A model generated the notes under the pieces. That model was not told where the DNA came from. It saw only the letters and a program-made list of their open reading frames with translations, and did not search any database. Below, in pieces: positions 22,815 to 32,002 of a DNA stretch of 55,822 nt (position 1 is its first letter; each line of letters starts with the position of its first letter). Source of the DNA: an uncultured Balneolaceae bacterium (GTDB lineage: Bacteria; Bacteroidota; Rhodothermia; Balneolales; Balneolaceae); contig CALJMB010000326.1 in NCBI GenBank assembly GCA_937982515.1, positions 1 through 55,822 of the forward strand, read 5' to 3'. The translations under genes were made by a program, and so were the position numbers.

Positions 22815-23990
22815 CTAGTACTGTGGCACGCTTTCATCTATTTCTTTCGACCACGCCAGAATTCCACCCTTCAGGTTGTACAGGTTATTGAAGCCGTACT
22901 TATCCCGAAGCTGACGGATGGCGTCGGCGCTGCGTTTACCGCTTCGGCAGTGAACCACCACTTTCTTATCACGGCTGATTTTGTCGGCATGGTCCAGCAC
23001 CGTATTGAGCGGGATAAGCTCTCCGCCAATTTCAGCGATCTCATACTCATGAGGTTCGCGCACGTCGATGAGCTGTATATCCTCGCCATGGGTAAGCCAT
23101 TCTTTATACTCCTGTACCGATACTTCAGGTATGTTCAGTTCGGCCTCCTGGCCCTGGCCCGGAATTCCGCAAAATGCCTGGTAGTCGATGAGTTCGGTAA
23201 GGGTGGGATGCTCTCCCGTCAAAGGGTTCTCCCTGTTTTTGGTGATCTTTACGGTTCGGGTCTTAAAGCTGAGCGCATCGAACAGGAAGAGCCGGCCCGC
23301 CAGGGGTTCTCCGATGCCGGTGATGATCTTAATCACCTCGCTTGCCTGCAGGCAGCCGATGATGCCGGGAAGTACGCCCAGAACGCCGGCTTCCGCACAG
23401 CTGGGCACCAGGCCGGGAGGGGGCGGTTCGGGAAACAGGTCGCGGTAGTTGGGCCCGCGGTTGCCTTCGTCGTCTACATAGTTAAAGACGGAGACCTGCC
23501 CTTCAAACTGAAAGATGGAGCCGTGCACGTTCGGTATATCCAGCATCACGCTGGCATCGTTGACCAGGTACCGGGTGGGGAAGTTGTCGGTTCCGTCGGC
23601 CACAACATCGTAACCTTTCAGGATGTCGAGGGCATTTTCGCTGGTTAGCTGTGTTTCATAGACATTGACGGTAATGTGCGGGTTGATTTCCAGCAGCCGT
23701 TCTTTGGTCACTTCTACTTTCGGGCGGCCAATGTCAGAGACGCCGAACAGAACCTGCCGGTGCAGGTTACTGGCTTCTATCTTATCAAAGTCGATAATGC
23801 CTATGGTGCCTACCCCGGCGGCTGCGAGATATTGAAGCATAGGCGCTCCGAGTCCGCCGGTACCTACAGCAAGTACTTTAGCCGCCTTCAGCTTTTTCTG
23901 GCCTTCCATACCAAACTCGGGAATGGTAAGATGACGGCTGTAATGGCCCAGTTCTTCTTTCGAAAACTCTACGTCGTTCCAGTTGTTCAT
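22815..23990 (-). CDS. moeZ: E1-like adenylyltransferase/sulfurtransferase (ThiF/MoeB domain fused to rhodanese), MoeZ-type
   Basis: 391 aa; GTGGLGAP nucleotide loop; C-terminal rhodanese with HCRSGKRS active-site loop. Confidence 0.9.
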   Translation of the reverse strand: MNNWNDVEFSKEELGHYSRHLTIPEFGMEGQKKLKAAKVLAVGTGGLGAPMLQYLAAAGVGTIGIIDFDKIEASNLHRQVLFGVSDIGRPKVEVTKERLLEINPHITVNVYETQLTSENALDILKGYDVVADGTDNFPTRYLVNDASVMLDIPNVHGSIFQFEGQVSVFNYVDDEGNRGPNYRDLFPEPPPPGLVPSCAEAGVLGVLPGIIGCLQASEVIKIITGIGEPLAGRLFLFDALSFKTRTVKITKNRENPLTGEHPTLTELIDYQAFCGIPGQGQEAELNIPEVSVQEYKEWLTHGEDIQLIDVREPHEYEIAEIGGELIPLNTVLDHADKISRDKKVVVHCRSGKRSADAIRQLRDKYGFNNLYNLKGGILAWSKEIDESVPQY

Positions 23991-24068
23991 GGTTTATATA
24001 TGGTTTTAGTTATCTACCCTTAATAAAGGGGGATTAAGAGGGGGCTTTAGATTCTGTGGCTCGATATT

Positions 24069-24344
24069 CTATATTCCGCCGGCAATAGCAGGGACGATGC
24101 TGATTTCTGTGTCCTCGCTTAGCTCAACGGAACCGTTTTCATTAGGGTTTACCTCGTTATCTTCGATGTATACCTTAATAAAGGATCGCACCTTGCCTTC
24201 TTCATCCAGCAGATTGTTTTTCACACCGGGATAGGTGGCTACCAGATGATCGATGGCATCGGACAAAGTCTGCCTGTCGGTTTCAAAGTTGCGCTTTTGA
24301 TCGGTGAATTTGCGCAGTGGCGTGGGAATGTTAATGGTTGCCAT
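24069..24344 (-). CDS. cysO: ThiS/MoaD-fold sulfur carrier protein (CysO-like) ending ..AGG-I
   Basis: Start placed at MATINIPTPLRKFT (Met18 of the ORF); 91 aa; C-terminus VPAIAGGI, i.e. one residue after the Gly-Gly. Confidence 0.8.
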   Translation of the reverse strand: MATINIPTPLRKFTDQKRNFETDRQTLSDAIDHLVATYPGVKNNLLDEEGKVRSFIKVYIEDNEVNPNENGSVELSEDTEISIVPAIAGGI

Positions 24345-24435
24345 GGTTGTGGTAGTAAATGTGTTGATGTTTTGTGTAATATGGTATGGCCTCAAAGGGC
24401 CGGAGGTAGTGGCCTTCTATTCATTCGTTGGCGTA

Positions 24436-24870
24436 TTATTGGCCATTTATAAGCGGTTGTGTTTCCAGCGGTTCCTCCCCGAACCGGCGCTCGTTGTTCA
24501 GCCGCCATGAGCGTATATCGGCTGCTTTTCCATCCTGTACTGAAATGATGATATAGGAGAAAAAGGGCATTGCCGCTTTACGATCGTGTTCGGATGGTTC
24601 GGCTGGATGGTCCGGATGCGAATGATAGATGCCCAAAAAGTCCAGACCGTTTTCATCCGCGTATGCCTCCGCTTTCCGGTAATCCTGAGGGTCGATACGA
24701 AAGCGTCTGCGCTGATCGCCCTCTTTGGCGTTGGTTACCCGCTGTACGTGTGAGACGACGCGCTCTTCCCCGTCCTCCCCGAAGAAAAATCCGCAACATT
24801 CATTGGGGTAGATTTCTTCCGCGTGGTTTTGCATGTAGACGGTTACTTCATCTTTGAGTAAGAGTTTCAT
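24436..24870 (-). CDS. mec: JAMM/MPN+ metalloprotease (Mec-like)
   Basis: 144 aa; NECCG glutamate motif and exact JAMM signature HSHPDHPAEPSEHD (HxH-x7-S-xx-D). Confidence 0.9.
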   Translation of the reverse strand: MKLLLKDEVTVYMQNHAEEIYPNECCGFFFGEDGEERVVSHVQRVTNAKEGDQRRRFRIDPQDYRKAEAYADENGLDFLGIYHSHPDHPAEPSEHDRKAAMPFFSYIIISVQDGKAADIRSWRLNNERRFGEEPLETQPLINGQ

Positions 24871-24894
24871 GGATATAATTTATGGATGCAACGT

Positions 24895-25848
24895 TTACGT
24901 CTTGTTAAAAAGGTGATTCATAACTTCTCCATACTTGCTGCCGTCATCGGGAAAGACGGTTACCACCGTTCCTTCTTCTAGTTCATCTGCCAGTTGCAGC
25001 GCGGCCGCGAGATTGGCTGCGGAAGAAGGGCTCAGTAATAAACCTTCTCTGGATGCAGCCAGCTTTATCGTTTCGTGTGCTGTTTCTGTACCGATACTCC
25101 TGATTTCATCCGGCAGGGTATCATCATATATACCCGGAACGAGGGCTGTTTCCAGGTGTTTCCAGCCTTCCAGTCCATGCATAGGCAGGTCGGGTTGAAG
25201 CGCTATGACACGTATATCCGGATCATATTCTTTGAGGCGCCTCCCCGTACCCACGACGGTTCCGGTAGTGCCCAGTCCCGCTATGAAGTGGGTGACACCG
25301 TACTCCGACTGCTCCAGTATTTCAGGGCCTGTGGTATCGTAGTGAGCTTTCCAGTTACTCTCATTTCCATACTGGTCGGCAAAGAAGTAGGTGTCGGGGT
25401 CATCTTCGAATAGTTGCCGCGCAATTTCCTGAGCCTCGTCGGTTGTACCTGTCATAGAAGTTAAACGGAGATCTACCCCTAACGCTCTTAAAATCCTTTT
25501 TCGTTCGTTTGTGGCGTTTTCAGGCAGGCATAGTGTAACCGGTATGCCCAGCGCCGCCCCGATGTGAGCGTATGCAATACCTGTGTTACCACTGCTGGCA
25601 TCCAGCAACCGTTTACCGGGAATCAGGGCGCCTTGATGAATGGCATCTTTGATAATTCGATACGCCGGGCGCGCCTTGACACTTCCGCCGAATTGCTGCC
25701 ATTCCAGTTTTGCAAATATACGTACCTTCTCATTGCGGTTGATATTAGTGACATGATAGAGAGGGGTACCTCCTATAAAGGGGGCCAGCCGATTGCTTTT
25801 AGCTGCCAGATTAGCCTCTGGATTTTTAATCAGATTAATAGTGTTCAT
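24895..25848 (-). CDS. cysM: PLP-dependent cysteine synthase, CysM/CysK family
   Basis: 317 aa; PLP lysine context GGSVKARPA; SSGNTGIA loop; first gene of the cysM-mec-cysO-moeZ string. Confidence 0.9.
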   Translation of the reverse strand: MNTINLIKNPEANLAAKSNRLAPFIGGTPLYHVTNINRNEKVRIFAKLEWQQFGGSVKARPAYRIIKDAIHQGALIPGKRLLDASSGNTGIAYAHIGAALGIPVTLCLPENATNERKRILRALGVDLRLTSMTGTTDEAQEIARQLFEDDPDTYFFADQYGNESNWKAHYDTTGPEILEQSEYGVTHFIAGLGTTGTVVGTGRRLKEYDPDIRVIALQPDLPMHGLEGWKHLETALVPGIYDDTLPDEIRSIGTETAHETIKLAASREGLLLSPSSAANLAAALQLADELEEGTVVTVFPDDGSKYGEVMNHLFNKT

Positions 25849-25955
25849 TTAAAGTATGCCTTGAGTTGGAAGTTGAGAAAAAGCCCGACGGAGGTTGAAC
25901 TTCAGGATCAGACTTTGTTACCGGTAAGAGAGATAAGTATGGGTAAAACGGTAAC

Positions 25956-26039
25956 TTAACTACAACAACAGCAACAACACGCCGCACAGCAGCAGCGGTT
26001 GGAAGGAAAATAATTTAGTATGTTGGTTGCTGTTTTCAA
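25956..26039 (-). promoter_or_regulatory. Cys-codon-rich leader ORF (27 codons, TTG start) upstream of cysM: (M)KTATNILNYFPSNRCCCAACCCCCCS*
   Basis: Translated by hand from the minus strand; 9 Cys in the last 12 codons (TGC/TGT); stop TAA at 25956-25958; 108 nt upstream of the cysM ATG; aligns in register with the plus-strand leader. Confidence 0.65.
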
Positions 26040-26295
26040 TCTGTAATCGCTTTTAAGCCAGACCAGCCTGGCTATATGAAGTTAATAAAAACTGTGATTA
26101 ATCCAAGGCTAGATGCTGTAAAAAAGGTTTTTCGCCCTTTCGGCATAACCAGGGTTCGCTAAAAAGAGTTCAATTTGGAAAGGAATAATTTTTTTATAAT
26201 TTCTCTTGACATCAATCCTCAGAGTTTATAATCTGTTGGCGGTGCTGAAGAAACCGCTGGCACCAACGTTTTTCATTACACATTTAGTACTATTT

Positions 26296-26412
26296 ATGAG
26301 CTTTCTCAACAACATCCAAAACTTTTTCGTTGCATACATGTGCGCTTGTATGATGTGTATCTGTTGTTGTATGGATACCGTAAAAGGTAGTGGATGGAGC
26401 ATTCTCAAATAG
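26296..26412 (+). promoter_or_regulatory. Cys/Met-codon-rich leader ORF (38 codons, ATG start): MSFLNNIQNFFVAYMCACMMCICCCMDTVKGSGWSILK*
   Basis: 3' part of the 68-aa track ORF 26206..26412; 6 Cys + 4 Met in 12 consecutive codons (26338-26373); followed by antiterminator/terminator elements. Confidence 0.7.
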
Positions 26413-26434
26413 TATATTAAAGGATCTAACTCAA

Positions 26435-26469
26435 AGCCCACTACCTGATACAGGTGGCGGGCTTTTTTT
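26435..26469 (+). terminator. Attenuator terminator AGCCCACTACCT-GATAC-AGGTGGCGGGCT + T7
   Basis: 12-bp stem (one mismatch, one G-U) followed by TTTTTTT; the 5' arm can alternatively pair with GGTAGTGG at 26386-26393. Confidence 0.8.
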
Positions 26470-31666: not shown

Positions 31667-32002
31667 ATGGCTTACGTAGTTACCGAACCTTGCATCAACT
31701 GTAAATATACCAACTGTGCAGCAGTTTGCCCCGTAGACGCTTTTCGTGAAGGGCCTAACTTTTTGACCATTGATCCTCTGGATTGTATAGATTGCGATGC
31801 TTGCGTCCCTGAGTGCCCGGTTGAGGCTATTTATCCGGATGATGAAGTACCCCAGGAGTGGGAGCATTATATAGAGCTGAATGAACGGCTTGCGGAAAAC
31901 TGGCAAGATCGCATCATCAATCAAACCCAGGATCCGCTGCCCGATGCCGATGACTGGGCCGAAAAAGAAGACAAAGAAGACCTGTTGCAGGAGGACTGGT
32001 AA
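31667..32002 (+). CDS. fdxA: 7Fe-type ferredoxin (FdxA-like)
   Basis: 111 aa; CINCKYTNCAAVCP and CIDCDACVPECP cluster motifs. Confidence 0.9.
   Translation: MAYVVTEPCINCKYTNCAAVCPVDAFREGPNFLTIDPLDCIDCDACVPECPVEAIYPDDEVPQEWEHYIELNERLAENWQDRIINQTQDPLPDADDWAEKEDKEDLLQEDW

Follow-up and report, generated by a model that had tools for sequence, protein, structure and literature searches.

A conserved cysteine-codon leader upstream of the cysM-mec-cysO-moeZ operon in Balneolaceae and its probable role as a translated cysteine sensor

Introduction

The cysM-mec-cysO-moeZ operon of an uncultured Balneolaceae bacterium is preceded by a very short reading frame that ends in a run of cysteine (Cys) codons, which raises the question of whether this leader is a chance feature of the DNA or a device through which the cell adjusts the pathway to its cysteine supply. 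Cysteine is both essential and toxic, and its supply is therefore tightly controlled. The operon lies on the minus strand of contig CALJMB010000326.1 (GenBank assembly GCA_937982515.1), positions 1-55,822 of which were analyzed and are referred to here as the window. In the literature, nothing was found on the regulation of the CysO/CysM (thiocarboxylate) pathway in Bacteroidota or Balneolaceae. An original prediction, made from the letters of the DNA, had proposed that the leader is a cysteine-starvation sensor that acts on the operon through a weak stem and U-run ahead of cysM.

Results

A cysteine-rich leader ORF ends 107 nt before cysM

The leader open reading frame (ORF) occupies positions 26039-25956 of the minus strand, which spell TTG-…-CCCAACCCCCCS-TAA. 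Its 27 sense codons run from a TTG start to a TAA stop (25958-25956) and would encode the peptide (M)KTATNILNYFPSNRCCCAACCCCCCS*. Codon by codon it reads TTG AAA ACA GCA ACC AAC ATA CTA AAT TAT TTT CCT TCC AAC CGC TGC TGC TGT GCG GCG TGT TGT TGC TGT TGT TGT AGT TAA. Nine of the final 12 sense codons specify Cys, against a Cys share of 0.8% among the codons of the window's genes, and they form two clusters: TGC TGC TGT (25986-25994), and TGT TGT TGC TGT TGT TGT (25962-25979), which is separated from the stop by one codon. The frame contains no ATG and is closed upstream by an in-frame TAA at 26084-26082; the ORF ends 107 nt from cysM, on the same strand. Re-reading of the minus strand reproduced each element that the original prediction had set down, namely the position and sequence of the leader with its nine Cys in the last 12 codons, the non-ATG start, a GTTACCG-N25-CGGTAAC hairpin (25955-25949 with 25923-25917, 25-nt loop), an AGUCUGA/UCGGGCU stem (25914-25908 with 25888-25882), a U5 run (25882-25878) and the cysM ATG at 25848.

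Such a concentration of Cys codons is exceptional in this DNA. A six-frame scan of the 55.8 kb found only two stretches with at least six Cys per 12 codons, the cysM leader (9/12) and a plus-strand ORF at 26296-26412; mononucleotide shuffles of the window gave a mean of 0.02 such stretches.

Cysteine runs precede cysM in many families of Bacteroidota

The conservation of the leader was examined in 80 species genomes with CysM relatives, comprising 614 kb of loci from Balneolaceae and other Bacteroidota (individual loci are cited by L numbers). The best CysM matches were from Balneolaceae (among them Halalkalibaculum, Fodinibius and Aliifodinibius; 63-72% identity), and the rest from Saprospiraceae, Chitinophagales, Cytophagales and others; a scan of metagenomes returned no relative above about 70% CysM identity. 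Enough sequence upstream of cysM was available at 77 of the 80 loci. Runs of four or more TGY codons (Y, T or C) occurred 85 times in the 614 kb, and 74 of these lay on the cysM strand and no more than 450 nt upstream of cysM. The original prediction had allowed that the run might be absent from orthologous regions, or that the other two reading frames might be equally well conserved. The run was present upstream of cysM at 64 of the 77 usable loci, distributed over many Bacteroidota families, and the alternative frames were closed by stops at 59 and 48 of these 64.

All 64 runs lie inside ORFs that have a start codon and are 7-40 codons long (16-40 in all but three). The start is ATG in 55 of them; the nine for which only GTG or TTG is available are all from Balneolaceae. 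TAA, TAG and TGA are all used as stops, and the Cys codons themselves are mixed (TGT:TGC, 271:89). Among 18-19 aligned Balneolaceae leaders, most columns of TGTTGTTGCTGTTGTTGT are invariant, and so are most of their synonymous sites. Farther afield, Cys-run leaders precede cysM by about 50-450 nt in Saprospiraceae, Chitinophagales, Cytophagales, Reichenbachiella, Flexithrix, Puia and others (L022-L080); what distant families have in common is Cys codons in a short ORF, and not the sequences of the hairpins P0 and P1 described below. These comparisons indicate that the cysM leader ORF is a real, conserved regulatory leader, and that it is very probably translated.

Several of the loci carry a pair of Cys-run small ORFs, one after the other, before cysM (L026, 107-383; L033, 3566-3895; L040, 2060-2292; L055, 1626-1903; L056, 3571-3850; L074, 3622-3921), which may be tandem attenuators.

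A conserved xTG start position and a candidate Bacteroidetes-type promoter

In the 18-19 aligned Balneolaceae leaders the start position is an invariant xTG, and its frame is that of the Cys run in every case. Most leaders have TTG here; L001 and L014 have GTG, L008, L019 and L020 have ATG, and in L030 and L039 an in-frame ATG precedes the xTG position by one or two codons. All insertions and deletions between start and stop in the Balneolaceae leaders are multiples of three. Together, the invariance of xTG, its constant frame relative to the Cys run and the indels by threes are the signature of a start codon, and the occurrence of GTG or ATG at the aligned position supports, from sequence, the use of the TTG that the original prediction had chosen. 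Shine-Dalgarno (SD)-like motifs were found at 3 of 31 confident genes of the window, and the lack of one at the leader is therefore normal for this organism.

A candidate Bacteroidetes-type promoter lies at 26077-26106 of the minus strand, with TTG (26106-26104), a 19-nt spacer and TAACTTCA (26084-26077), and a predicted transcript start at about 26070. The pattern TTG-N18-20-TAnnTT[TC][GAT], which we take to be the Bacteroidetes-type promoter consensus, occurs in 13 of 26 Balneolaceae leaders, at a distance of 143-171 nt before the leader stop (150 nt in the window); its background in the window is 0.018 per 200 nt. TTG-N19-TAnnTTTG promoter-like patterns also occur in the window. A scan had matched a sigma-70 promoter within the ORF (TTGAAA-16-TAAATT, beginning at the TTG), and this candidate was rejected because the first base of the triplet varies to G or A in relatives and because the Bacteroidetes-type motif is kept farther upstream. 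By the look of these motifs, the organism starts both transcription and translation in the Bacteroidetes manner.

The conserved promoter-like motif predicts a 5' untranslated region (UTR) of about 30 nt, which contains a small hairpin (AGCCAG-6 nt-CUGGCU, 26056-26073, minus strand; -9.1 kcal/mol, z -2.35). Hairpins at the equivalent position were recognized by eye in relatives, for example CUGACA...UGUCAG in L001, L002, L007 and L021. Another minus-strand hairpin, GGUU-AUGCC-GAAAG-GGCG-AAA-AACC followed by U6 (26120-26150; -8.7 kcal/mol, z -1.7), stands between the promoters of the two divergent leaders and may insulate the cysM leader from antisense transcription.

The ORF is predicted to fold on itself

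A hairpin that the original prediction had not described, termed P0 here, is formed by the ORF itself. Its 5' arm (AACAGCAAC-C-AACA, 26021-26034 of the minus strand, codons 2-7) pairs with 25979-25967 in the second Cys cluster, an inner helix joins 25997-25992 to 25985-25980, and the first Cys cluster falls in the apical part. The predicted energy is -23.1 kcal/mol (z -3.4), which none of 200 shuffles equalled, and the P0 fold is the minimum-free-energy structure in nearly all orthologues.

Codon choice in the leaders follows this pairing. The N-terminal 'TAT' motif of the leaders is kept at the nucleotide level. Their Thr codons are ACA in 33 of 42 cases and their Ala codons GCA in 17 of 19, compared with 24% and 19% in the genes of the window, with the caution that A-rich codons are also expected around SD-less start sites. 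When the leaders were recoded synonymously, the real codons paired better with the run (median rank 0.067; 10 of 27 below 0.05). In one subfamily a compensatory change was seen by eye, from CAAGACAUA/UAUGUCUUG to CAAAACAUA/UAUGUUUUG in L011. Compared with random genomic 30-mers the complementarity is modest (median rank about 0.15), because a UG-rich run pairs with many sequences. As the register of P0 differs between subfamilies, an alignment-wide count of pairs was dropped in favor of these per-sequence tests.

Two adjoining hairpins are predicted in the interval between the stop codon and cysM

The first of these, P1 (25917-25955, minus strand), is the GUUACCG/CGGUAAC hairpin already mentioned; it begins immediately after the stop, and its loop is free of G and pyrimidine-rich. 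P1 has a predicted energy of -7.3 kcal/mol (z -2.2). In 19 Balneolaceae leaders, 95% of the alignment cells are paired, with three pairs changed on both sides, whereas slid controls gave 17-66%; the arms are kept in sequence as well as in pairing. In relatives P1 begins at the final base of the stop codon or at the next base, and the loop is G-poor and pyrimidine-rich. A DNA palindrome, TTACCGGTAA, was considered as a transcription-factor site and rejected: its left half is not kept in L005, L006, L011, L014, L016 and L017, and the long-range complementarity, including G·U pairs, is kept where the palindrome is not. In L001 (3785-3880) and L090 (leader ending at 548) the stop lies downstream of the P1 5' arm, which hence belongs to the translated part.

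The second hairpin, P2, pairs AAAGUCUGAU (25916-25907) with GUCGGGCUUU (25889-25880) and, with the U5 run at 25882-25878, spans 25878-25916 of the minus strand, 30 nt before cysM. A hairpin is found at the P2 position in nearly all orthologues, and a U-rich tail in some only. On the predicted folding, P2 and U5 together are best described as a weak terminator-like element. Taken singly, the hairpins of the leader are a less persuasive signal than its Cys codons.

A proposed trp-like mechanism and the evidence for and against it

The cysM leader is, with high probability given this pattern of conservation, a translated Cys-sensing cis-regulator. That it is a ribosome-mediated, cysteine-responsive attenuator of the cysM-mec-cysO-moeZ operon is a proposition on which the evidence is evenly poised, and the complete trp-like chain that we infer stands a little short of even.

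In that chain, transcription would start about 30 nt upstream of the TTG from the Bacteroidetes-type promoter, and a ribosome would initiate at the TTG without an SD and translate the 27 codons. When Cys-tRNA(Cys) is scarce, the ribosome would stall while still 20-40 nt upstream of the stop, among the early Cys codons; with its 5' arm left free, P1 would form, and the operon would be read through. When Cys-tRNA is plentiful, the ribosome would reach the TAA and cover the P1 5' arm directly adjoining it, and transcription would end in the leader, most likely at P2 and its U5 run and otherwise by Rho. The preferred read-out is trp-like in that a ribosome at the stop would cover the P1 5' arm and a stall on the first five or six Cys codons would leave it free. 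The self-fold P0 might act as a brake on repeated translation of a Cys-costly peptide, might cause RNA polymerase to pause and so synchronize it with the first ribosome, or might do both.

Several observations are consistent with this logic. By eye, the deep-branching L030 shows pairing between the segment that follows the stop and the 5' arm of the next strong hairpin, the 2:3 versus 3:4 logic of trp. When the P1 5' arm was masked, at least 9 of 17 orthologues showed pairing of the 3' arm with the P2 3' flank, and in L017 the 3' arm is able to pair with a downstream duplicate of the 5' arm. Further support comes from outside the Balneolaceae. Most leaders there have a strong terminator 50-70 nt past the run; in the 33 analyzed its energy is -12 to -29 kcal/mol and a U-tract follows in each case. 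Between 4 and 32 nt past the run, mostly within the ORF, lies a 'region 2' whose sequence is complementary to the 5' arm of the terminator (mean z -2.2; z below -2 in 20 of 33). By these predicted folds, the leaders of the non-Balneolaceae relatives are of textbook trp-type design, as is the plus-strand leader of the window described below. A filter for a hairpin followed by a U-tract was passed at 45 of the 64 loci, including most of the relatives outside the Balneolaceae.

Other findings weigh against the trp-like chain. The hairpin-plus-U-tract filter was passed by only 3 of 22 Balneolaceae leaders tested (plus the window). In the window P2 is a weak hairpin, with an energy of -9.8 kcal/mol (z -1.5), a loop of 17 nt and three G·U pairs; it was not called in a terminator scan of the window, and it adjoins P1 with neither spacer nor overlap. 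In constrained folding with a 30-nt ribosome mask placed at each codon, P2 stayed intact throughout in the window, and likewise in 17 orthologues; since P2 is present at every simulated ribosome position, there is no thermodynamic antiterminator in the window, and none that is mutually exclusive with P2 was predicted there. The cysM leader therefore fails one hallmark of the classical attenuator, the mutually exclusive antiterminator. Moreover, a TTG start without an SD is intrinsically weak, and the last Cys codons lie so near P1 that a ribosome stalled on them would mask it just as a terminating one does. Of the sensor-attenuator that had originally been proposed, the short, non-ATG, Cys-rich leader of the cysM operon is upheld by the comparative evidence, and the weak stem and U5 run argue much less convincingly for a terminator.

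Other outlets for the signal were also sought. Read-through into cysM by frameshifting on hungry codons was suggested by the +1 frame, in which a 50-codon ORF (25987-25835, minus strand) runs from the Cys run through P1 and P2 to a stop 10 nt past the cysM ATG. This candidate was set aside: in none of the 22 orthologues tested does an alternative frame stay open as far as cysM, and the opening in the window is therefore most likely due to chance. No sequestration of the cysM start region was predicted, and the region was unpaired in all folds. In most Balneolaceae leaders an AGN codon (Ser or Arg) follows the last Cys (25959-25964 of the minus strand in the window). In 18 of 23 leaders the resulting UGU-AGN places a UAG in the -1 frame where the run ends, so that ribosomes slipping back on hungry Cys codons would terminate at that same point.

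Alternative explanations

If the leader is a Cys sensor, the read-out may still differ from that of trp. The alternative with appreciable weight, though clearly below even, is that the same sensor works either by masking of the mycobacterial type, in which a ribosome on the polycysteine run blocks P0, P1 or both and the open state is ON, or through an OFF state set by Rho or by mRNA decay. Masking would suit a Cys run that abuts the stop and a P1 5' arm whose spacing from the run, 6-7 nt, is retained in L001 and L090 despite their displaced stops, and in mycobacteria the polycysteine codons do form one arm of an inhibitory duplex, at the 3' end of the small ORF (sORF). However, the P1 arm is reached only from the last one or two Cys codons, whereas starved ribosomes stall first at the early ones, and the run pairs with the 5' end of its own ORF and not with the unstructured cysM start region. 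Rho has been proposed for Cys leaders that have no terminator, those of mycobacteria among them (Seliverstov et al. 2005, PMC1262725), and most Balneolaceae P2 hairpins are without a U-tract. The interval between leader stop and cysM is rich in C and poor in G (29% C and 13% G in the window, where it is partly folded; means of 27% and 14% over 23 leaders), but G-poor leaders are expected for SD-less initiation too. A second copy of the P1 5' arm in the P2 loop, perfect in L017, L097 and L098, could bind the 3' arm once this is free and so open P2 (-12.3 kcal/mol); it is lineage-specific and absent from the window and most other loci, and was rejected as an antiterminator partner. A related possibility, rather unlikely, is a distinct attenuator design for SD-less bacteria, made up of a weak, TTG-initiated polycysteine ORF with P0, a P1 that abuts the stop, and a non-classical output. 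Under this design P0 may close the leader's own start region once the Cys run has been transcribed, and P1, as a sequence-conserved hairpin abutting the stop, may report the position of the ribosome; the output may be neither a terminator/antiterminator switch nor sequestration of a ribosome-binding site (RBS), for example Rho loading, RNA decay or a P1-bound factor.

The remaining explanations dispense with the sensor altogether. An improbable one is an untranslated, structured 5' UTR, in which P0 arises from a UG-rich run and an AC-rich partner, P1 and P2 bind a protein or small RNA, and the ORF is a by-product. The stability of P0, the nucleotide-level conservation at synonymous sites of the run and of codons 2-8, the P1 arms conserved beyond their pairing and the TTG start are all in keeping with it. 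An element that acts as RNA only would not, however, retain toggling between TTG, GTG and ATG, in-frame indels, a varying stop and closed alternative frames, nor does it account for distant families that have only the Cys codons in a short ORF in common; furthermore, Rfam 15 gave no match above threshold in the window or in the leader regions of 15 related loci, its sole matches at these loci being tRNAs downstream of the operon. Still less probable is a functional micropeptide rich in Cys, such as a binder of metal or sulfur or the precursor of a ribosomally made peptide that is modified after translation, co-expressed with sulfur genes. The product would indeed be short, rich in Cys and conserved beside genes of sulfur metabolism, but the sequence beyond the Cys run is not kept between families, the N-terminal codon choice follows RNA pairing and not amino acids, most members of the family precede terminator/antiterminator pairs, and modifying enzymes are absent from the adjacent genes. 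Neither Pfam-A nor NCBIfam gave a match for the peptide of the cysM leader or for that of the plus-strand ORF. Finally, a chance feature or a functionless TGY microsatellite would be in line with the repetitive run and with a P2 stem that shuffled sequence can match; this reading is effectively refuted by the rarity of such stretches in shuffles and by the retention of position, strand and frame in 64 loci across the phylum.

A second leader faces a divergent sulfur operon

The other Cys-rich stretch of the window lies 260 nt from the cysM leader, on the plus strand. It runs from an ATG at 26296 to a TAG ending at 26412 (MSFLNNIQNFFVAYMCACMMCICCCMDTVKGSGWSILK) and faces an operon for a rhodanese, sulfite reductase, uroporphyrinogen methylase, 3'-phosphoadenosine-5'-phosphosulfate (PAPS) reductase and sirohaem synthase (rhodanese-sir-cobA-cysH-sirC). 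Its terminator (26433-26465, followed by U7) is strong, at -21.8 kcal/mol (z -5), and its 5' arm, CCACUACC (26438-26445), has a complement in a segment of the leader, GGUAGUGG (26386-26393). As far as predicted pairing goes, this twin has the layout of a classical attenuator with a mutually exclusive antiterminator. Its peptide family, ..QN.IHNF..MC.MCCCM..KGSG.., is conserved in at least 10 Balneolaceae loci. Just 3' of the sulfite-reduction operon, the ORF at 31667-32002 contains a CxxCxxCxxxCP motif typical of 4Fe-4S ferredoxins (DCIDCDACVPECP, 31781-31819, plus strand).

The operon downstream of the cysM leader (22815-25848, minus strand) is the CysM-Mec-CysO-MoeZ thiocarboxylate route to cysteine. 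Pfam matches agree with the gene assignments of the original prediction: cysM (25848-24895; PALP, cysteine synthase), mec/JAB (24870-24436; Prok-JAB), cysO (24395-24069; ThiS) and moeZ (23990-22815; ThiF-rhodanese fusion). This gene order is retained in 76-77 of the 80 related loci. The tRNA gene found 3' of moeZ in relatives is a tRNA-Pro and is unrelated to the leader.

Discussion

The analysis indicates a sensor of cysteine that requires no dedicated protein, a ribosome reading a run of Cys codons, in front of the cysM operon in most of the related loci examined. If this is correct, the two leaders on divergent operons in Balneolaceae would constitute a two-operon 'ribulon' comparable with the mycobacterial one that has been demonstrated experimentally, although of independent origin. 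Should the distinct design for SD-less bacteria prove right, the cysM leader would, together with its twin and the 64 of 77 loci, amount to a cysteine regulon run by ribosomes in a phylum for which none was found described. For annotation, a run of four or more TGY codons within an ORF of 16-40 codons ahead of sulfur genes would serve to flag unannotated regulatory ORFs, and the locus provides a natural test case for leader-peptide attenuation with SD-less, non-AUG initiation.

Full-text literature searches found no Cys leader for Bacteroidota or Balneolaceae. General remarks on leader-peptide attenuation exist for the transcriptomes of Flavobacterium and Bacteroides, with no mention of cysteine. 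Bacteroid-trp, said to have been reported by Weinberg et al. in 2010 as a leader with Trp codons before trp genes in Bacteroidetes, would likewise be leader-peptide attenuation at work in an SD-less phylum, with another amino acid and another sequence. A closer parallel in amino acid is the uORFC-8-2 motif of Rhodobacterales, an upstream ORF (uORF) with two Cys codons ahead of cysS, which also has a predicted terminator and senses Cys-tRNA charging (PMC8632094). It differs in having two Cys codons only, in its tRNA synthetase target and in its host group, Alphaproteobacteria, and its sequence is unrelated.

The trpL, hisL, pheL and thrL leaders of Escherichia coli are the classical leader-peptide transcription attenuators. 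Like trpL, the cysM leader is a short ORF rich in codons for the end product, upstream of a biosynthetic operon, with a stop just before a hairpin arm that a terminating ribosome can cover (region 2 of trpL) and with a hairpin and then a U-run ahead of the first gene. Unlike trpL, it has no predicted overlap of the 2:3 versus 3:4 kind in the window and a very weak terminator, its regulatory codons pair upstream, in P0, and not downstream, and its start is a non-AUG codon without an SD.

For Actinobacteria, Seliverstov et al. (2005, PMC1262725) predicted polycysteine leader ORFs that sense Cys, and leaderless polycysteine sORFs (LL-sORFs) were demonstrated in Mycobacterium smegmatis, for Ms5788A/Rv0815A and five other loci, in a study that described uORF-mediated cysteine attenuation as previously undescribed (Canestrari et al. 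2020, bioRxiv 10.1101/834739). The resemblance to these is extensive. In both cases a short ORF ending in a run of Cys codons stands upstream of cysteine or sulfur genes, the Cys codons make up one side of an RNA duplex, no intrinsic terminator is obvious, and several loci are co-regulated, or would be, via ribosome pausing; thiosulfate sulfurtransferase is among the mycobacterial targets, as it is for the plus-strand twin of the window. There is no sequence homology to the mycobacterial leaders, which implies an independent origin. The cysM leader would also lack two mycobacterial hallmarks, the leaderless start and pairing with the RBS of the next gene: by prediction it is not leaderless, with a promoter about 30 nt upstream and a TTG start, and its Cys run pairs with its own codons 2-7 and not with the ribosome-binding region of the next gene. 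The organism is furthermore SD-less, and most of its relatives in the Bacteroidota use classical terminators. The concept of a cysteine-codon leader is thus established; what would be new to specialists is a widespread family of cysteine attenuators in the Bacteroidota and, within it, a TTG-initiated, self-pairing variant with a hairpin at its stop codon.

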